DNA of 64,000 bases from Heterodontus francisci. Taxonomy: Eukaryota. The DNA lies in NCBI RefSeq assembly GCF_036365525.1, contig NC_090380.1:60540712-60604711 (forward strand). The letters are read 5' to 3'. The translations under genes and the position numbers were made by a program. A model generated the notes under the pieces. It made no database searches, had not been told where the DNA came from, and saw nothing but the letters and a program-made list of their open reading frames with translations. Positions 760-13,170 of the stretch are shown here, piece after piece (position 1 is the first letter of the stretch; every line of letters starts with the position of its first letter).

Positions 760-2422
760 TTTCTCCAATGTCTCTGCCATTTCTTCGTTCCCCATGATGA
801 TTTCTCCTGTCTCTCCCTGTAAGAGACCAATGTCTACTTTAGCTACTCTCTTCCTTTTTATGTACTTATTAAAGCTCTTACAATCTGCTTTATATCGCTT
901 GCTAGTTTACACTCATTCAATTTTTTCCCTTTTCAACTTTTTGGCAGTCCTTTGCTGGTTTCTAAAACACTCCCAATCCTCAGACTTGCTACAACTTTTT
1001 GCAACATTGTAAGCCTCTTCTTTTAGTCTAATACTCTCCTTAATTTCCTGAGTGAGCCACGGATGGGTCTTTCTTGACAAGTTTTTGTTTTTGAACAGAA
1101 TGTACTTTTGTTGAACCTTTTGAATTGTTTCTTTAAATGTTTCCCACTGTTCATTTACCACCATATCTTCCACTCTATTTACCCAATTAACCTGAGCCAG
1201 TTCTCCCCTCATACCTTTGTAATTGGCTTTGCTGAAGTTTAAGATTCTTGTTTGTGATTGAAATGTGTCACTTTCAAACTTTACAGGAAATTCAATGGTA
1301 ATTTGATCAGTATTTTGCAGTGGATCTTTTACTACGACATTCCTTATTAACCCTGCTTCATTACACAATACTAGATCTAAGATAGCTTTATCCTTAGTCA
1401 GTTTTATAACGTACTGCTCCAAGAAACTGTCATAAAAACATTCTACAAATTCATCTTCTAGACCACAGTTGTCAATATATGCAGATTAAACTCCCCCGCA
1501 ATTAATACATTACCTTTGTTACAAGCTCGAATAATTTCCCATTTAATGTTCTGTCGAATAGTATAACTACTGTTAGGAGGCCTGTAAATTACTCCCACCA
1601 GTGTTTTCTGACTCCTGTTATTCCAAATCTCCACCCAAACTGATTCTACTTCATGATCTTCTGAGGCTAGATCCCTTCTTATTAATGTCCTTATGTCATC
1701 CTTTACTATCAAGGCTACCCCTCCTCTTTTCCCATTCTGTCTATCTGTCTAAAATATTGTGTACCCTGGAATATTAATTTCCCAACCTTGATCTCCTTGT
1801 AACCATGTTTCGGTAATGGCAATTAGATCTAGATCATTTACCTCTATTCATGCCACAAGTTAATCTATCTTATTACAGATGCTTCGTGCATTCAGATAAA
1901 AGAACTTTAATTTCATTTTTTTACCTCTATTCCCTGCAATGACCTTATTTGCTGATGTACATTTTTTTGTTAAAATCTCAGTACCTTCCAGTCCCATTCT
2001 GTTGGCATTCCACATCACTATCCTGCTCCAATGCCCTGACCTCTCTCTTTGGATTTCTAAATTTCCCTTTACCCAAACCCTCCCACCCCCGCACCATCAC
2101 CACCTTCCCCCCCGCAACCCCCCCCCCACACCACACGCTTCCCCCCCACCGCCCCCCACCGCCCCCCCCCCCCCACTCTCTTAGTTTAAAGCCTTGTCCA
2201 CAGCCCTAGTTATGCAATTGGCCAAGACACTGCTCCAAGCCCGGCTCAAGTGAAGCCCATACCAATGGAATAGCTCCCTGTTCCGTGAGTACTGATGCCA
2301 GTGCCCCAAGAATCGAAACCCCTTCTTCCCACACCACACTTTTCGCATTTAGTTTTCTAATCTGCTTGACCCTGTGCCAATTTGCGCGTGGCTCAACTAA
2401 CAATCCGGAAGTGATTATCTTT
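760..2422 (-). mobile_element. Decayed CR1 LINE (ORF2 endonuclease region and 3' part of ORF1), interrupted by the provirus
   Basis: ORFs 913-1422 and 1458-1712 carry CR1 APE-endonuclease motifs (VGVIYRPPNS, AILDLVLCNE, FSKANYKGMR, PWLTQEIK). Confidence 0.85.
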
Positions 2423-3197
2423 TGTTGGATCTCAATTTTCCTGTTCTCATTGGTTACACCAAAAAGGGACGAAGTCCGACTGTAGCTTTAAGAAACTTTA
2501 TTGCAGTACTTAATTGTTACATCTTCAAAAAACTTAACAATGAACTGAACTAAAACTAAAAGCAACACATACACTGAACTAACCTAAAACTAAAAGCACC
2601 ACACACACTAAACTAACCCTGAACTAACCACCACCCCCCACGAACTGAACTGAACTGACTCTTCGCGCCAAATCAAGCCTTATTATAGTTATTCATACAA
2701 ATCAGTAACACCTACTCTTTGTTCCCAATTGGTCTACAAACTTCTGCAGTTTCTTGGTGTCAGGGTCTGATTGGGGTACTGCCTTGTCATCCTCTCCTCA
2801 AGCAGTTTCTTATCCCCCTATCTCTTCGGACCGTTAGGCTGAGCCACCCTCGGACAAGGGGCGTGGGTTTGCCTGGTCAGTATGTTTCTCACACTAACTG
2901 TTCCTTAGGAATGTGTCATGTCTGGGTGATGCGGTAAGAAGAGTGTTGTTGAAGCATAATGTCTCTTTCTGCTATTGCGCTGTACCAGCTGCAAGGTCAA
3001 TGGTGAGATTCCTGTTAGTTTCTGCTTGTTAGTCTGTTTCTGCTGATAAGTTGCCTCTGCAGCCCTGAAGTTATGAAGTCGTTACCGATAAGCTGTCTCT
3101 GCAGCTCCGAAGCTAGCTTGTTAGCAAACATGATTGATTAATTATTTCATCGTAAATGTCCCCAAAAAATTCTGTTCTTAAACATTCTGTTCTCACA
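2423..3197 (-). repeat. 3' LTR of provirus
   Basis: TGTTGGATCTC...TTCTCACA, near-identical to 11657-12420; adjoined by the PPT. Confidence 0.95.
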
Positions 3198-3208
3198 GTC
3201 CCCCCTTT
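3198..3208 (-). promoter_or_regulatory. Polypurine tract
   Basis: Reverse complement AAAGGGGGGAC directly precedes the 3' LTR. Confidence 0.85.
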
Positions 3209-3450
3209 GATTCTTCAAAACACTTTTAAGAATCATTCCCTTGATCCCACCTAGGTGCCTTTGATGGTCTCTACTTGTTTAGGAAAAGCCTTCAACACCC
3301 GGAGGAGTCACACTCAATACGTTGACTGCTTGTGCCACAGAAGGGGCCCGCGAGAACTCTGGAAAATCGTAAGTTTTGCAGGGGCTTCAGTTACCTGTTT
3401 ACAACATAAAAGTTGGTACACTTGTACAATTACAATTTCATTTAAGCATC

Positions 3451-3581
3451 TTCTTCTTCTTCTTTGGCCTCCTTATCTCGAGAGACAATCGGTAAGCGCC
3501 TGGAGGTGGTCAGTGGCGTGTGGAGCAGCGCCTGGAGTGGCTAGAAAGGCCAATTCTAGAGTGACAGGCTCTTCCACAGGT
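3451..3581 (-). mobile_element. RTE LINE 3'-end fragment with (GAA)n tail
   Basis: Matches the 3' ends of the RTE copies at 3913, 31856 and 37566. Confidence 0.85.
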
Positions 3582-3912
3582 TTTTTTTTAGAATTAGAAT
3601 ATTACAGCGCAGTACAGGCCCTTCGGCCCTCGATGTTGCGCCGACCTGTGAAACCATCTGACCTACACTCTTCCATTTTCATCCATATGTCTATCCAATG
3701 ACCACTTAAATGCCCTTAAAGTTGGCGAATCTACTACTGTTGCAGGCAGGGCGTTCCACGCCCCTACTACTCTCTGAGTAAAGAAACTACCTCTCACATC
3801 TGTCCTATATCTATCACCCCTCAACTTAAAGCTATGTCCCCTCGTGTTTGCCATCACCATCCGAGGAAAAAGACTCTCACTATCCACCCTATCTAACCCT
3901 CTGATTATCTTA
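3582..3912 (-). mobile_element. CR1/HER1 LINE 3'-end fragment
   Basis: ORF 3663-3887 (TRGHSFKL...FFTQRVVGAWNALP) is the CR1 ORF2 C-terminus; it is followed by a TTCTAA-type tail and A-run. Confidence 0.85.
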
Positions 3913-6616
3913 TTCCTTCCTTTTGGGCCTCCTTATCTCGAGAGACAATGGATACGCACCTGGAGGTGGTCAGTGGTTTGTGAAGCAGCGCCTGGAGTGG
4001 CTATAAAGGCCAATTCTGGAGTGATAGGCTCTTCCACAGGTGCTGCAGAGAAATTTGTTTGTCGGGGCTGTTGCACAGTTGGCTCTCCCCTTGCGCCTCT
4101 GTCTTTGTTCCTGCCAACTACTAAGTCTCTTCAACCCGCCACAATTTAGCCCTGTCTTTATGGCTGCCCGCCAGCTCTGGCGAATGCTGGCAACTGACTC
4201 CCACGACTTGTGATCAATGTCACACGATTTCATGTCACGTTTGCAGACGTCTTTAAAGCGGAGACATGGACGGCCGATGGGTCTGATACCAGTGGCGAGC
4301 TCGCTGTACAATGTGTCTTTGGGGATCCTGCCATCTTCCATGCGGCTCACATGGCCAAGCCATCTCAAGCGTCGCTGACTCAGTAGTGTGTACAAGCTGG
4401 GGGTGTTGGCCGCTTCAAGGACTTCTGTGTTGGAGATATAGTCCTGCCACCTGATGCCAAGTGTTCTCCGGAGGCAGCGAAGATGGAATGAATTGAGACG
4501 TCGCTCTTGGCTGACATACGTTGTCCAGGCCTCGCTGCCATTAAGCAAGGTACTGAGGACACAGGCTTGATACACTCGGACTTTTGTGTTCCGTGTCAGT
4601 GCGCCATTTTCCCACACTCTCTTGGCCAGTCTGGACATAGCAGTGGAAGCCTTTCCCATGCGCTTGTTGATTTCTGCATCTAGAGACAGGTTACTGGTGA
4701 TAGTTGAGCCTAGGTAGGTGAACCCTTGAACCACTTCCAGAGCGTGGTCGCCAATATTGATGGATGGAGCATTTCTGATGTCCTATCCCATGATGTTCGT
4801 TTTCTTGAGGCTGATGGTTAGGCCAAATTCGTTGCAGGCAGCCGCAAACCTGTCGATGAGACTCTGCAGACACTCTTCAGTGTGAGATGTTAAAGCAGCC
4901 TCGTCAGCAAAGAGGAGTTCCCTGATGAGGACTTTCCGTACTTTGGACTTCGCTCTTAGATGGGCAAGGTTGAACAACCTGCCCCCTGATCTTGTGTGGA
5001 GGAAAATTCCTTCTTCAGAAGACCTGAACGCATGTGAAAGCAGCAGGGAGCAGAAAATCCCAAAAAGTGTGGGTGCGAGAACACAGCCCTGTTTCACACC
5101 ACTCAGGATAGGAAAGGGGTCTGATGAGGTGCCGCCATGTTGAATTGTGCCTTTCATATTGTCATGGAATGAGGTGATGATACTTAGTAGCTTTGGTGGA
5201 CATCCAATCTTTTCTAGTAGTCTGAAGAGACCACGTCTGCTGACGAGGTCAAAGGCTTCGGTGAGATCAATGAAAGCAACGTAGAGGGGCATCTGTTGTT
5301 CGCAGCATTTCTCCTGTATCTGATGAAGGGAGAACAGCATGTCAACGGTCGATCTCTCTGCACAAAAGCCACACTGTGCCTCAGGGTAGACGCGCTCAGC
5401 CAGCTTCTGGAGCCTGTTTAGAGCGACTCGAGCAAAGACTTTCCCCACTATGCTGAGCAGGGAGATTCCACAGTAGTCTTTGCAGTCACCGCGGTCACCT
5501 TTGTTTTTATGGAGGATGATGATATTGTTATCGCGCATGTCCTGAGGTACTGCTCCCTCGTCCCAGCACAGGCAAAGCAGTTCATGTAGTGCTGAGAGTA
5601 TAGTAGGCTTGGCACTCTTGATTATTTCAGGGGTAATGTTGTCCTTCCCAGGGGCTTTTCCGCTGGCTAGAGAATCAATGGCATCACTGAGTTCCGATTT
5701 TGTTGGCTGTATGTCCAGCTCATCCATGACTGGTAGAAGCTGAGCTGCATTGAGGGCAGTCTCAGTGACAACATTCTCCCTGGAGTACAGTTCTAGGTAG
5801 TGCTCAACCCAGCGGTCCATTTGTTTGCGTTGGTCAGTGATTATGTCCCCTGATTTAGATTTGAGGGGGCGATCTTCTTGATGGTTGGCCCAAAAGCTCT
5901 CTTAATGCCATCATACATTCCTCTGATGTTTCCGGTGTCTGAGGCCAGCTGAATATGACAGCAAAGGTGTTGCCAGTAGTCATTTGCACAGCGCCTGGCT
6001 GTTCTTTTTGCAGTGATTCTGGCTGCTTTAAGTGCTATGGATGTTAACTCGCCGGGGGCTTTCTTGTAGTTCAACAGTGCAATGCGCTTAGCGGCTATGG
6101 CAGGTTCCAGCTCTTCAATATGAGATTGAAACCAGTCTGCATTTCTCTTCGCACGTTTGCCGTAGGTGGTCAAAGCTGACTCATAGATGGCGTCTCTGAT
6201 GTGGGCCCACTTGGTCTCAGCATCCCCTGTGGGAGTTTTTTGAAGGGCTGTTACAACTGAATTTAGAAATTTTTGTCACAGCTGTGGATGAGAAATTCTG
6301 CTCGTGTTGATGCGCTGGAGGCCCTTCTGCTTGGAATGATGCAACTTCTTTGGTCTGAGTCGAACCTTGCTGCACACCAGGGAGTGGTCGGTGTCACAGT
6401 CCGCACTGTGGAAGCTGCGTGTGATTTGAACACTGTTTAAGGAGGCTCGCCTTGTGACGATGAGGTCCAGCTGGTGCCAACGACGCGATCTTGGGTGCCT
6501 CCATGAAACCTGGTGACAGGGTTTAGTGTGAAAGAACGAGTTGGTGATGCAGAGGTTATGATAGGTGCACAACTCAAGCAGTCTCTGCCCGTTCTCATTC
6601 ATCCTTTCAATGCCAT
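3913..6616 (-). mobile_element. 5'-truncated RTE-clade LINE with frameshifted EN-RT ORF, inserted in the provirus 3' region
   Basis: ORFs 6276-6602 (EN end, DTDHSLV), 5841-6173, 4783-5820 (RT: QCGF, AFIDL, GVKQG, LLFADE), 3970-4734 (C-terminal CSTC...H zinc motif). Confidence 0.93.
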
Positions 6617-6772
6617 AGCATCACTGTTACATAATCGATTGTACAAACATAATGCAATATCATTCTTAAAGTACATTGATCATTCATTAACTCATTTTAA
6701 GTATATATGAAAAGGTTATACAATTACCCTTTTATGGCATAACTAATTGTCTCTCCTTTTATAAAGCAAGTT

Positions 6773-8810
6773 CTAACACTGATTGCTTTTCGGGTAGCTG
6801 TCCAACCTGTATTCATACATCCTCTTACATCGCCTACTTAATTTCTTAAATTGCCAAATTATATATGTCACATCTAACATCATGATACCCAAAACCACTA
6901 TCAGGACATGGGAGATAATTCTAAACCAGGGGTGTATCTGCACGTCTGACCCCCAGTTCCATAAGTCCTTCTGCCAGGTAGAATCATTTATCTCGTCAAT
7001 CTCATCTTGTAGCATCTTCGACTGTTGTTCCAGATTGTAGTACACTACAGCAATGACTTCTAGCTGCTGTCTCTCTTTACCCAAGCGTGTGGGCAATGGC
7101 TGGATAGTATATTCATATTCCCGGAGGTAATTTGTCAAATCCTCCTTAATACTTTCTGTCACAGTTATCGTTTCTGTCTTTTGTTTATGTATCTCTACCA
7201 ACTCCATCTTCCCTTCCTTGGTTGGTATTTGTGGGTTGAACCAAAATGTACTGTTGCTCACCAGACAAGTCTGTTTATGTCATACTGGTACTCCTTCGCT
7301 GTGGTGGTTAAGCAATATCTCCCCTTTCCCATATAGGCCACATGGGTTAGCCCTGACAATGCTTTCCTAGTCTTCATGGTGCAATTTACAGTGGCATTAA
7401 ATCCACATTTTGATTCTGCCATTTTATATATATGATGAGGACATATGACCACCTGGTTTTCCAGACTACACTCAGACAATGGACAATGTTGTTTCAATTA
7501 CCTCTTTTCCAATTTCCACAACATTTTCATAACATAGGGTAATATATCAGTGTTTTATGTAATCTTTTCCCCTTATCACCCCTATATTTTCTACTTTGTA
7601 TAATTGCATCCCTAACTTATCTCTCAGAATTATAGGTATTCCCAACACTACTCCAATACTCATAGATCCTGTATTTACACATTCCTGACCTTTCCATACT
7701 TTACATTTTCTGATTTGGCACCTGGTAATTTTATCATTCGTGTGACTAGTTAAGTTCTCCGACTGGGTGTCATTTATCCAAACTGGCACCTGTCCTGCAT
7801 CAATTTGCCTCAAACTTTCTCAAATTTGTTCTAACATTCACGAACCATATGTACTACAAACACTTTCATTATTTGAAATGATATCATTAATCGTATGAGC
7901 ATGACCTTCTAGTACTCTCATCAGTCCTGTAATTAGTTCAGTTGCTCTGCATGCAACAAATCACATTTTCTTCCATTCCCGGTATCTCTTTGCATACCAG
8001 GTGTTGTTTATATTGGAGTCTGTCATTTGCTGTTGACTTTATATACCTTCATTTGGGACCAATGTTTCCATCGGCCCTTCCCTTTTACCATTACTTTGTC
8101 TCCCACAACAGGCACCTTCGTCTGTTCCTCTTTCATGTCTGTTTCTATAGAATCTCCTGCCTCAGCTCATACAGATGTCTGCACAGCTCCTTCACAAATC
8201 ACCCTTCCTCTCATGGGTCCTACTTCCTTACTACCTGCTACGACATACCTTGGCAGTCTCATCACCCTTCCTGTCACCGTATTCATCAAGTCCTTTCCTA
8301 CTTTAGCTACACCACTCTGTCCCTTTTGTTCCTTTTTCAAAATATCCTTTACTAGCTGACTACGAGTTCTAACATTCTGGTCCACATTTTCCAAATCTAT
8401 AGTATTGACAATTGAAGTTCCCGTATTAATCACTAAACTACGTTTACGTCTCTTTCCTTTTATTATTCCCTCATTACCAAATTCCTGTCTCAGAAATTGT
8501 TACAGTATTACCTTGTACAACTCTCAGATCTTCTCAGGGCACCAGCCAGGTAGCTGGATATCTGAGATATTCAATATTACCGGTACCAACTCAAGCTTTA
8601 TATTATCATATACAATTTTATTAGTTTTTATTATCGCAAGTCCATTTTCTGGTCCTGCAGTTAAGGCAGGGCAAGGGAGACCAGTCACTTGTGACTGCTG
8701 GGTCATAACCTTACTAATCGGTAATTCGGATGTGGGGGTAACCGTGGGGGTTGGTGCTTTTTGTCTGTTTAATCTCACAACCTGGAATAGGAACTGTCCT
8801 TTTTTATCTT
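6773..8810 (-). pseudogene. env: Decayed env: class I (F-like) fusion glycoprotein
   Basis: Collinear ORF fragments 8524-8778, 8167-8433, 7547-7813, 7258-7497, 6773-7261. Furin site KRRKR at 8454-8440 followed by heptad-like helix; Cys-rich ectodomain; Trp-rich membrane-proximal WQKDLWNW; TM segment IISHVLIVVLGIMML; basic tail. In-frame stops and frameshifts present. Confidence 0.85.
7929..8282 (-). pseudogene. Integrase C-terminal fragment displaced into env
   Basis: TGRVMRLP...(frameshift) FVKELCRHLYELRQEI...VGDKVMVK resembles post-core and C-terminal integrase motifs; flanked by TCATCA(A)GTCCT repeats. Confidence 0.55.
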
Positions 8811-8811
8811 A

Positions 8812-8965
8812 GAGCTTTAATATCTTGCGCTAGGGGGAGTTTGAGGATTGTCTGCACTCACTTTTGCTCTGTCTCATGCTTTCCCTGTGTTATTACTATC
8901 CCCAAATAAGAAACCTTTTCCTTCATTATCTGTGCCATTTTCAGCTTAACTTTCACTCTGACCTT
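8812..8965 (-). pseudogene. pol: Short reverse-transcriptase remnant (palm/thumb junction)
   Basis: KVKLKMAQIMKEKVSYLGIVITQG...VQTILKLP...KALR resembles the retroviral KAQ-x6-YLG-x3-SQG motif. Confidence 0.7.
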
Positions 8966-11039
8966 CTGGAGGAAGGTGGAATATCGATGGATTATTATAA
9001 AATCCCTGGGAGAGACACGTCCAGATGTACTGTTGTCCCTTGAACGTAAACGCAAATTTATATTGACACTCTTGTGCCAACGGTATGGACCAGAACCCAT
9101 TGCTAATGTCCAACACAGTAAACCACTGTTTTGTTATTTTCTAAAACTTTGATTGTCCTCTTAAATATCAGATAAATTTCCCTTTGAGTGCTTTAAATAA
9201 CCACTCATATCAATTAAATTTTGTTTATTGATTCCAATTTCCTATGCCCAGACTTGGTGGTATTTTTTGTACGTTAAAGACAGAAGTGCTTGCAACTATC
9301 TCTCCTTCTCAAGCACTTTGTCTCATTGATAAAGATGTTGTGACATTTGATGTCTGCAAGTCCTTAAATTCTCAAAGCTGCTGGATCTCTTGCTGTGGCA
9401 TCATTTCTCACATGGCCTTGGAACCTGCCATCGCCTGCTTAAAAAAAAACACAAAGAATCCATTGTGGCTCTGCCCCTGAGCCCAATGGGTTAATTTGTC
9501 CACTTATATCTGTCAATTTAGAAATTTAAAATTTAACAATGTCCTCTCAGCAATGCAAAAATTGTGTGGTGGATTAAATGGAAAAAACAATAGCTGCAGC
9601 AGTTTGTTTGTCTCCAAGGGGGCGGAGCAAAACATTCTCAGCTTCGTCACTTTACGTAACCTTTTTTCTGATCGAAAAAAACTACTCTCCACTTTAAACT
9701 TTTTTCAATCCTTTTGGTATCCTTAGAGTTTGAAAACAACAAAATCATTACTAACATTATCAACTTCAAAGGAAAGCATCTCCATCAGGAAAGACAGCAT
9801 TTTAGATTAAACTGCAATTGTTTTCAAATTTTTAGCATCATTTGTAAGAGGTTTCTAATGCCAGGATTTTTTTATAACAAAGATTATTCCAAATTCCAAT
9901 TCACTGCAATAAATATTTAAAAACCAAAACTGCCAATGTTATATGAATGAGTCTTGTGTCCAGAACTGAAGACTCCCCCAAAACTTGACATAATAAACTT
10001 GAAAGTTCATTGTGGCCGCAAATGAAATTTCCAGTTTTTCAACTTAACAGGTCAATTAACCTTAATAGTATAAACTTAACTCAGACTTATTAACTTATAA
10101 TACTTATTAACTACACACAGAACAGAATAGCACGTGCTTTGTTTCAAAAGATAGGTAAATTATGGCATTTTCCTTGTTCTTCAGGCGCCTTTTCAAATGC
10201 CTGTAACAAAACCAAAAACTAAAGGAAGAGTTATTTAACATTCTTAACACAAAAGATTTAACACCAACTCCTTACACAAATTTTAAACAGAGAGAATCTT
10301 TCCTATATCTCCTTTGTTTATCCTTCTCTCCCTTAAACCAATATCCAATTCCTGACATTTGCTACTTAAATACAGTCAGTAAAACATGTCTTTAATTTAA
10401 ACACCCAAAAAAAAACAAGAACAGATTTGAAACTGGAACTCCAATTAAAGCAGTGTTTTAAACTTCAAATTGGATTTCTGGCAAACATCTTCAGACCTTC
10501 AAGGCTGAAGCTTATCTCTTACAAAATTGTTCATTGCCTCTTCACAGTTGCAAAATCAACTTTTAAAATAAAAATAAAACTTTAACTTAAAATATAATTC
10601 AATTTTATATCCCATTCCTGGGTGCACAATCTTAAATTGAAATTAATACACAACAATCACTTTTCACACTCATTCAATTCCAAACAACTCAGAAAATTGA
10701 TTCCTGTAATGGGTTATTAATTCAAAATACCAAATCTCTTTCAAATTCCCTGTCCTGATGTCAAGGAGCACACACAGGTTCAACTAATTCACAACCAAAA
10801 CATGACTCAAGGTTCCCACAAAATATACACCTGTAAAAATAGAAAAAGTAACAGACTCATTCTTTCATCATTAAGGCCAGACAACAAAGAGTTCACGACA
10901 GTCAGTTCTACAGAACACAAGTTGTACAGAACACAAGCTGTACATCCCAGGGACATTCAATTCATTCGTGGAAGCTTCCAACATTCACACATTCAAATCA
11001 AAGACACAGTAACTTGTTTTTACACTAAAACATAGTCCT

Positions 11040-11327
11040 TTATGTCACTCTGCCATAAACTTTGTCATGGAGCTCTCTGGCCTTTAGTAGCCAAGAACCA
11101 TTGGGTCCATTCTTTATCCTTATCCAAACTCTCGTTATATCTTCCAGGGACCACTGTCCCGTGGAGGTGCCGTATTTTTGCCCAATTTCAGTGTACGTTT
11201 TAGCCAAATTAAACTGTTGCTCTACATATTCTTTTAACTGCCGAAGTATTTCATCTTCGGGAACGTCAGGTGGGGCCCACCCACCTTTGACAGTAGTTGG
11301 TAACTGTCGGTTACCTTTGTCAGTCAT
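11040..11327 (-). CDS. 95-aa ORF in gag position, possibly a Gag N-terminal remnant
   Basis: ATG-initiated ORF ~310 nt downstream of the PBS; no diagnostic motif, called on position only. Confidence 0.4.
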   Translation of the reverse strand: MTDKGNRQLPTTVKGGWAPPDVPEDEILRQLKEYVEQQFNLAKTYTEIGQKYGTSTGQWSLEDITRVWIRIKNGPNGSWLLKARELHDKVYGRVT

Positions 11328-11574
11328 TTTATCAAAGCCGGAAGGTCGGTATAACCAGATATTTCTACAGATAAACTCAAGCCGATGGAGCTTCCTTCGA
11401 ATGCCGTGGGCCGGTATAACGCCGAATACCGCCGAATTAGGCGCCTAAATATGGGGTTTCCGTCCTCTGTACTCCCCCCAAATGGACTCGAGTTACTGAA
11501 CAAAAAGGTTCGGGATCGCATGGTGGAGTACCGAGCTTAGACAACAGCCAAGAACTTTTAAAACAACAAGGAGT

Positions 11575-11583
11575 CCTTACCTC
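11575..11583 (-). promoter_or_regulatory. Putative major splice donor of the provirus leader
   Basis: GAG|GTAAGG on the minus strand ~55 nt after the PBS. Confidence 0.55.
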
Positions 11584-11635
11584 TGGGACCCGATAACGGT
11601 CCGATGTCCAATGCTTTGGTCTCTATCCTCCAGCG

Positions 11636-11653
11636 ATCCTGCCGACTACGCCA
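11636..11653 (-). promoter_or_regulatory. Primer-binding site, tRNA-Ser
   Basis: TGGCGTAGTCGGCAGGAT is complementary to the 3' 18 nt (ATCCTGCCGACTACGCCA) of vertebrate tRNA-Ser(AGA/TGA); 3 nt from the LTR. Confidence 0.92.
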
Positions 11654-11656
11654 AGT

Positions 11657-12420
11657 TGTTGGATCTCAATTTTCCTGTTCTCATTGGTTACACCAAAAAG
11701 AGACGAAGTCCGACTGTAGCTTTAAGAAACTTTAATTGCAGTACTTAATTGTTACATCTTCAGAAAACTTAACAATGAACTGAACTAAAACTAAAGGCAA
11801 CACATACACTGAACTAACCTAAAACTAAAAGCACCACACACACTAAACTAACCCTGAACTAACCACCACCACCCACCCCCCCACGAAACTGAACTGAACT
11901 GACTCTTCGTGCCAAATCAAGCCTTATTATAGTTATTCATACAAATCAGTAACACCTACTCTTTGTTCCCAATTGGTCTACAAACTTCTGCAGTTTCTTG
12001 GTGTCGGGGTCTGATTGGGGTACTGCCTTGTCATCCTCTCCTCAAGCAGTTTCTTATTCCCCTATCTCTTCGGCCCTTTAGGCTGAGCCACCCTCGGACA
12101 AGGGGCGTGGGTTTGCCTGGTCAGTATGTTTCTCACACTAACTGTTCCTTAGGAATGTGTCATGTCTGCGATAAGAAGAGTGTTGTTGAAGCATAATGTC
12201 TCTTTCTGCTATTGCGCTGTACCAGCTGCAAGGCCAATGGTGAGATTCCTGTTAGTTTCTGCTTGTTAGTCTGTTTCTGCTGATAAGTTGCCTCTGCAGC
12301 CCTGAAGTTATGAAGTCGTTACTGATAAGCTGTCTCTGCAGCTTTGAAGCTAGCTTGTTAGCAATACATGATTGATTAATTATTTCATCTTAAATGTCCC
12401 CATAAAATTCTGTTCTCACA
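11657..12420 (-). repeat. 5' LTR of provirus
   Basis: Near-identical direct repeat of 2423-3197, TG...CA termini, adjacent to the PBS. Confidence 0.95.
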
Positions 12421-13170
12421 CCCTTCTTCCCACACCACACGTTTCGCGTTTCGTTTTCCAATCTGCTTGACCCTGTGCCAATTTGCGCATGGCTCAAGTA
12501 ACAATCCGGAAATGATTATCTTTGATGTTCTGCGTTTTAGATAAACCCTAACTCTTCAAATTCTCAAAGCAGAACATAATTTCTGGTTCTACCTATGTCA
12601 TTGTTTCCCACATGGACCACGATAACTGATCCACCCCTCCCACTCCAGGTTCCTCTCCAGCCACGGGGAGATGTCCTTAACCTTGGCACCAGGCAGGCAA
12701 CACAGCCATCGGAGCTCCTGTTCGAGGCTACAGAGAACAGTATCTATCCCCTTGACTCCACTGTCTCCTATTACTACCAAATTCCTCCTCTCTCCCCCCA
12801 CTGGAATGGCATCATTCACCATGGTGCCATGGTCAGTCTGCTCATTTATCTTGCAGTCCTTCTCTTCACCCATACAGGTAGCAAGGACCTTGTACTTGTT
12901 GGACAAGGTGAGGGGCTGAGGCTCCTCCATCATTACATGTTGATTCCCCCTACCTGCCTCACATGTAGTCACACCCTCCTATCGCTGACCATTGGCCATC
13001 TCGAATGTTCTCTCTACTCTAAGGGGTGTGACTGCCTCCTGGAACAAAGTATCCAGGTAACTCTCCCCCTCCCTAATGCTCCACAATGTCTGCAACTCAG
13101 TCTCCAACTCAGCAATTCTGAGCTGATGTCGTGCAAGCTGCAGACACTAACTGTAGACATTGTTGACCAG
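12421..13170 (-). mobile_element. Continuation of the CR1 LINE: ORF1 (SGNH esterase) region
   Basis: ORF 12598-12972 has LTLSNKYKVL, VVIGDS and CCLPGAKVKDI, typical of CR1 ORF1. Confidence 0.85.

Follow-up and report, generated by a model that had tools for sequence, protein, structure and literature searches.

A dead shark provirus with the ends of one retrovirus family and the F-type env interior of another

Defective, helper-dependent retroviruses such as spleen focus-forming virus (SFFV) and the mouse elements ETn/MusD spread with the proteins of a helper. Recombination between retroviral classes is also known: XtERV-S, as far as the consulted part of its description goes, combines a class III pol with a class I env (PMC8278194). 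The foamy virus envelope protein (Env), a class Ib fusogen, is described in the consulted section of another study as sharing the core of the paramyxovirus and pneumovirus fusion (F) proteins (PMC11468914). Endogenous retroviruses (ERVs) related to snakehead retrovirus (SnRV) have been reported from the elephant shark as CmiERV lineage I, and the consulted parts of the reports do not term their Envs F-type (PMC4422223, PMC6001957, PMC12193657). For lokiretroviruses (hereafter loki), the consulted part of the published survey gives 0 of 3 Chondrichthyes genomes as positive (PMC7947760). Here we analyze a provirus on the minus strand, from 12420 to 2423, of a 64-kb stretch of the genome of the shark Heterodontus francisci (the whole stretch is called the window below). 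The original prediction took it for a non-autonomous, env-retaining, loki-like element. We propose that it is very probably a dead provirus without autonomy, built from two shark retrovirus families, one of which supplied its ends and the other its interior, and that the donor of the ends likely also provided the Gag-Pol that copied it.

The window element is a chimera of two families, here called F and G (Table 1). Its long terminal repeats (LTRs), primer-binding site (PBS), gag stub and env tail belong to family G, and its reverse transcriptase (RT) relic and env belong to family F. The gag stub led us to family G, whose loci have related LTRs and, in 11 of 14 cases, the same tRNA-Ser PBS. 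The window LTR gave no blastn match to the family F loci L005/L006, L011 and L025/L026, and family F loci carry a different PBS, which we take to be of the tRNA-Lys type. The RTs of the two families are only 45% identical; that of family G groups with Astyanax and Lepisosteus ERVs as a clade whose sister is the class I/II group. The family G env is gamma-type, with CWIC, an immunosuppressive domain (ISD) and CX6CC together in 3 of the 14 loci, the others being deleted or cut off. Read in the direction of the provirus, the sequence switches sharply from G to F-derived at 11076-11084 and back to G at 3406-3416, next to the family G env tail.

The env carried by this chimera appears, from its reading frames and variants, to be a passenger that was dead before the element spread. 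The window env runs from the linker through an F2-like part, the furin site, the first heptad repeat (HR1), Cys-rich domains, the second heptad repeat (HR2) and a Trp-rich motif to the transmembrane (TM) segment, and it has neither the N-terminal domain nor the putative signal peptide, the latter called by eye. Both are missing from 15 of 15 window-type env copies. Both this loss and the shared insert in HR1 predate the spread, and the shared variants look neutral: nonsynonymous/synonymous counts are 68/28 for shared variants versus 142/44 for singletons (omega 0.86, p=0.32). In gag-pol-bearing copies the env counts are 27/27 for shared variants versus 221/93 (omega 0.36, p=0.004). The window copy is dead, and no function for the host is evident; as a functional description, “env-retaining” is not supported, since the env was broken before amplification.

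Among the alternatives, the deleted elements could be satellites that were kept because they complement a gag-pol helper in trans with an F-type Env. Env is indeed the largest coding block kept, and in older deleted copies its shared variants give an omega of 0.32 (p=8e-8). The RT relic of the same copies, however, gives an omega of 0.39 (p=0.009), so that this purifying signal is not specific to env, and in the env tree these copies are intermixed with gag-pol-bearing ones. The signal was therefore likely inherited from working ancestors. Since the window-type copies moreover lack the env start, share the HR1 insert and show no constraint, and since family G has its own env, we regard such a satellite role as very unlikely.

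The chimera is not confined to the window. All 40 scored matches to the RT/env junction share it at 95-100% identity (of 2,564 first-look candidates), all 40 scored matches to the 333-bp env insert share that at 93-100% (of 657), and all 150 scored matches to the env C-terminus are at 80% identity or more (of 5,198). These counts are lower bounds, and at least 40 copies share the chimeric structure. Sister copies lie on many contigs in unrelated flanks, with LTR pairs 1.6-4.5% apart, and 4-5 bp target-site duplications (TSDs) flank 5 of the 8 window-type sister copies with both LTRs; in the remaining three the ends are irregular or were mis-picked by the script. Fifteen window-type copies form one clade in the env tree (0.98) and in the RT tree (1.00), nested among older deleted family F derivatives that already carry the AT-rich segment and the RT relic. 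Many copies, a common deletion, paired LTRs and own TSDs are the features of a non-autonomous ERV mobilized by a helper, and the lack of autonomy that had been predicted is borne out. The nearest named proteins are those of Heterodontus francisci itself (84% identity), and a word-index homolog search returned three Heterodontus proteins only. The annotated Heterodontus fbxo15 isoforms P0001 and P0002 end with about 170 residues of window-family env (HR2 and TM), possibly through exonization or as an annotation artefact.

Copies of this kind might also be explained without any helper, if a single event in chromosomal DNA (a nested insertion with a deletion, or gene conversion) created the chimera and segmental duplication did most of the spreading. 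Tandem or near-identical duplicates do occur (C13, C35, C40), the window copy has no short TSD, and at L126:966-10000 a family G provirus contains, inside its integrase (IN) gene, a second tRNA-Ser PBS followed by an F-type interior. But the unrelated flanks, own TSDs and LTR-pair divergence of the sister copies imply that an integrase was needed, and spread mainly by duplication seems to us very unlikely. A DNA-level origin of the first chimera is possible, and the nested arrangement of L126 could be an intermediate in its formation. The older deleted derivatives L047, L010, L024 and L043 carry other LTR combinations, L047 having G-type ends without the G gag stub; end-swapping therefore happened more than once.

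The env of the window family is F-type, as the original prediction had proposed, and is predicted to fold like the fusion proteins of measles virus and respiratory syncytial virus (RSV). The fold query was a natural sister copy, L039, whose F module is one open frame and which is 83-87% identical in DNA to the window env. Its AlphaFold model, a predicted monomer, has a predicted local distance difference test score (pLDDT) of 72.9 and a predicted template modeling score (pTM) of 0.51. The top Foldseek matches in the PDB were RSV F (E=6e-11) and the F proteins of human parainfluenza virus 3 (hPIV3), henipavirus and Newcastle disease virus (to 3e-9), and all rows listed down to rank 50 were paramyxovirus or pneumovirus F. 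In BFVD the model matched mononegaviral and baculovirus F and also the Envs of walleye epidermal hyperplasia virus 1 (WEHV-1; Q9WHI8, rank 17, E=4.8e-10), walleye dermal sarcoma virus (A4GTG3, rank 31, E=8.4e-8) and feline foamy virus (rank 39, E=1.9e-6); the Viro3D table has 0 class I glycoprotein matches for both walleye viruses, WEHV-1 being a partial genome there. In the ESM Atlas the sister F module came to lie near clusters of Fusion_gly, Baculo_F and Gypsy env, with scores of 0.93-0.94, a placement that is weak by itself because the recognition score lies below the tool's bar.

Sequence profiles point the same way. A whole-library HMMER search with the env found 42 relatives; 20 were looked up, and the 18 that are named come from sharks of six genera, a skate and two frogs. 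With a 44-row env profile, hPIV3 F ranked first among 177,635 PDB sequences (E=9e-4), and SnRV Env aligned to the profile in hhalign (84% over 283 columns, E=8e-6). A PDB sequence search with the single F module found no F match, F emerging only with the deeper profile and the fold; hhalign with a shallow env alignment gave a weak result, and pairwise BLAST between the shark env and loki Env was not significant. The family F env has the features of a loki Env (similarity to Mononegavirales F, an RXKR furin site, coiled coils and a TM segment). As predicted, CX6CC is absent from the natural sister env, and so is CXXC; the gamma-type combination of ISD, CX6CC and CXXC, lacking in family F, is found in family G.

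Other F-type Envs of this group were noted in passing. An Ig-like N-terminal domain occurs in several of them, namely P0132 (by its UniRef name) and P0153 (a weak V-set match, E=0.045), and the N-terminal domain of the SnRV env (L117:6131-9532) looks Ig-like by eye; the SnRV leader has a short hydrophobic exon ahead of a splice donor. A second abundant family (L027-L030, L035-L038), with about 70% RT identity to family F, has its own F-type env remnants and another PBS. The copy L025/L026 joins family F gag-pol to a divergent F-type env remnant (profile matches of 17 and 30 bits) that has no DNA match to the window env, a case of env exchange within the lineage. In L005:3200-4100, a gag-pol-bearing copy, a deletion fuses IN in frame to mid-env.

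The full-length relatives of the window element, which make up family F, encode a zinc-knuckle Gag, protease, RT, tether, RNase H and IN, followed by an env in which an N-terminal domain and a Pro/Thr linker precede the F-type fusion module. In pol they come closest to ERVs of frogs and the coelacanth that carry the annotation “NYNRIN-like” (42-47% over pol). In our main RT tree (mixture model, 34 rows hand-picked from 81 for run time), the shark family lies within canonical retroviruses (support 100/98), apart from a loki clade supported at 100/99; a forced shark-plus-loki clade was rejected by the approximately unbiased (AU) test (p-AU 0.0006). Support for the “canonical retroviruses” was 41% (SH-aLRT) in a quick LG+G4 tree, and 99 and 100/98 in the mixture-model trees. 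The loki RTs are the metagenome contigs L059-L061, whose motifs agree with the supplement of PMC7947760, and the SnRV, foamy and orthoretroviral RTs were taken from viral contigs. The family F motif is LPQG versus CPFG/TPFG in loki; together with YxDD, the gag-pol-env order and RT monophyly with spuma- and orthoretroviruses, all of which family F shows, this motif marks it as one of the canonical Retroviridae. Metaviridae RTs are separated at 100/100 and the RNase H of family F is dual, so the family is not a Ty3/Gypsy errantivirus. It also lies outside the foamy clade, which stands alone in a tree where fish foamy-like ERVs are not identified by name. The best named exogenous RT match tested is SnRV (49% identity); the shark, frog and coelacanth RTs form a group separate from SnRV in both mixture-model trees, which do not contain the published Huo reference set. 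The parent family of the window env is thus an early-branching canonical retrovirus, near but not demonstrably with SnRV. An assignment of the frog and coelacanth pol matches to loki did not stand up to the motif comparison with the PMC7947760 supplement.

A lokiretroviral identity, which would make the element the first of its kind from a cartilaginous fish, can hardly be right: loki Env is the best retroelement profile match of the env (40-45 bits over about 310 positions; shuffles at most 1 bit), the full-length relative has a dual RNase H (tether plus new RNase H), its IN is 39% identical to loki IN versus 30% to SnRV IN by BLAST, and family F is the best match of loki RT in the shark genome (41%), but the dual RNase H is not diagnostic since it is common to all retroviruses, the RT tree and AU test group family F with canonical retroviruses, the IN tree (with no named mammalian CGIN1) leaves loki outside (94/89, unstarred), the RT motif is not that of loki, the family F gag has a zinc knuckle as in SnRV while the loki gag examined has no Pfam match, and no RT above 41% to loki was found among 144 scored of 27,565 candidates, which agrees with the negative Chondrichthyes genomes of PMC7947760. 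The “loki-like” part of the original prediction is accordingly abandoned; a grouping of full-length relatives within known retroviral clades, which it had itself named as the outcome that would speak against it, is what we found.

Several results weigh against parts of our interpretation. As for the fold, the model's template modeling scores are low (0.28-0.41), its fusion peptide and linkers are of low confidence, and it is a monomer of a sister copy; the low scores likely stem from a monomer with long helices modeled in a mixed state. A first AlphaFold model, from a shallow alignment, had a pLDDT of 35. Pfam by itself stayed below its cut-off for the window env (best Baculo_F, E=1.4e-4), and a Pfam search with the whole single F module gave no F match. 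As for the relationships, the env profile scores loki Env well above SnRV Env (4 bits) and foamy Env (no more than 8 bits, where a reversed control reaches 7), the loki RTs in the trees are only three and all fish-like, and a supported clade of the shark family with SnRV itself was recovered in neither the RT nor the IN tree. As for the copying, mobilization by family G is deduced from shared cis-acting signals (LTR, PBS, gag start and polypurine tract).

Based on these findings, we suggest the following history. Family F, a canonical retrovirus with gag-pol and an F-type env, left internally deleted derivatives, as seen among its older copies. One such derivative then gained the family G LTRs, tRNA-Ser PBS, gag start, env tail and polypurine tract across the two junctions visible in the window, probably by co-packaging and template switching, with a nested DNA insertion like that of L126 as an alternative first step. 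The chimera may then have been copied in trans by family G proteins, with the dead env carried along; family G Gag-Pol is the likely copier because the priming, packaging and integration signals are all those of family G. Later, a long interspersed element (LINE) inserted into the window copy. Thus, of the helper predicted elsewhere in the genome, the existence of full-length relatives stands, and the likely helper shifts from the donor of the env to family G, the unrelated donor of the ends.

Table 1. Features of the provirus and its flank in the window (strand relative to the window).
Feature	Position	Strand	Basis or remark
5' LTR, family G type	11657..12420	-	73-89% identical patches versus family G LTRs
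PBS, tRNA-Ser(AGA)	11636..11653	-	matches 3' end of genomic tRNA-Ser(AGA) genes; common to family G
Splice-donor-like motif in leader (putative)	11576..11584	-	consensus match only
gag stub from family G, roughly codons 1-75	11076..11333	-	5' recombination junction at ~11076-11084
AT-rich non-coding segment, 33.5% GC	9130..11075	-	also in older deleted family F derivatives
Family F RT relic, two pieces (8975-9127, 8806-8966)	8806..9127	-	Pfam RVT_1, E=2.4e-11
Broken family F F-type env	~6773..8810	-	several stops and frameshifts
Furin site in env	8440..8458	-	sequence motif
333-bp foreign insert, HR1 region of env	7930..8262	-	common to window-type subfamily
Non-LTR RT element, later insertion, not part of provirus	3451..6616	-	RVT_1, E=6e-27
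Family G gamma-type env cytoplasmic tail and 3' untranslated region	3209..3406	-	81-93% identity to family G loci; 3' recombination junction at ~3406-3416
Polypurine tract	3198..3208	-	sequence
3' LTR	2423..3196	-	LTR pair alignment
103-bp flank duplication, left copy	2320..2422	.	right copy 12421-12523; 93% identical

Much of the anatomy had been predicted correctly. The two LTRs are indeed a few percent apart, with 14 substitutions in 752 columns (1.9%) and 8 gaps, and the 18-nt tRNA-Ser PBS, the polypurine tract and about 2 kb of decayed env with its furin site, Cys-rich stretch, Trp-rich motif and TM segment are all present. A motif also exists where a leader splice donor was called, and its status is that of a consensus match. 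The RT relic is longer than the ~150 bp first given: it amounts to about 315 bp, is fused directly to env and has lost the YVDD segment. The LINE insertion, the 333-bp insert, the gag stub, the env tail, the loss of the env N-terminus, the lack of a short TSD and the chimerism itself had been missed. The Kimura two-parameter distance of 0.019 between the LTRs corresponds to about 43 million years at the shark rate assumed in PMC4422223 or about 4 million years at a mammalian rate, so that the insertion age is uncertain tenfold. The AT-rich segment was absent from 10 of 10 gag-pol-bearing family F loci, and a search for the donor of the HR1 insert found no source. The non-LTR element, presumably RTE-like, is 3.2 kb long, and sister copies are contiguous across its insertion site. 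Other repeat fragments, which we take to be CR1-like, lie at 3588-3911 (inside the inserted LINE) and 12598-12978 (right flank). In place of a short TSD, the window copy has the 103-bp flank duplication; its 7 mismatches are above the expectation from the LTR divergence (P=0.003), and it may stem from an aberrant integration event or from two insertions in a repeat that recombined with each other.

The interest of the element lies mostly in the bearing of family F on the origin of retroviral Env. In the part of their work we consulted, Wang and Han set out four scenarios and later preferred independent acquisition, the Envs of loki and canonical retroviruses having no detectable similarity (PMC9040795). 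The scenario of an ancestral F-type Env becomes testable with a canonical lineage whose Env is F-type and loki-like, is widespread in sharks, a skate and frogs, and is related to that of SnRV, an infectious fish retrovirus. We tentatively raise the possibility, to which we lean somewhat less than to its opposite, that retroviral Env was in its ancestral form an F-type (class Ib) fusogen, that gamma- and beta-type Envs are later replacements and that N-terminal receptor-binding modules, some of them Ig-like, were swapped. F-type Envs would lie on both sides of the split between loki and canonical retroviruses, namely in loki, foamy viruses, the shark-frog-coelacanth lineage, SnRV and, by predicted fold, the walleye epsilonretroviruses. 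If true, an ancestral F-type Env would overturn the independent acquisition of Env preferred in the consulted part of PMC9040795. In any case, an F-type env alone is not a marker of lokiretroviruses, and the window element shows that two retroviral clades far apart from each other recombined within one germ line and that the hybrid then spread. In the literature within our reach (subscription journals, Repbase and bioRxiv supplements were outside it) we found no description of this chimera, nor of an F-type Env for ERVs related to SnRV or for canonical ERVs of sharks. The window element is a hybrid ERV, probably dependent on a helper, with a defunct F-type env whose source is a canonical retrovirus that branched early.

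Compared with known systems, family F resembles SnRV, clade Huo and class III ERVs in its canonical-retrovirus RT. In both it and SnRV, Gag combines a coiled coil with a single zinc knuckle, and SnRV Env, besides aligning to the shark profile, shows by eye an N-terminal extension and a Pro/Thr linker like those of family F. SnRV differs in that no supported RT or IN clade unites the two, the closest pol relatives of family F being the frog and coelacanth ERVs; from SnRV-related ERVs, the window copy differs as a non-autonomous chimera. Lokiretroviruses share with family F the F-type Env with an RXKR furin site and the tether plus RNase H, whereas the family F RT lies outside loki with another motif and its env has an extra N-terminal domain. 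Foamy viruses have their own RT clade, and their receptor-binding domain lies between the subunits, in contrast to the N-terminal extra domain of family F. A swapping of N-terminal modules among F-type retroviral Envs, if it took place, would be akin to that of coronavirus spikes. Like XtERV-S, the window element reflects recombination across retroviral classes, and like SFFV and ETn/MusD it is a defective genome that probably spread with a helper's proteins; unlike all of these, it combines cis-acting ends from a family with a gamma-type Env and, as its cargo, a dead F-type env.

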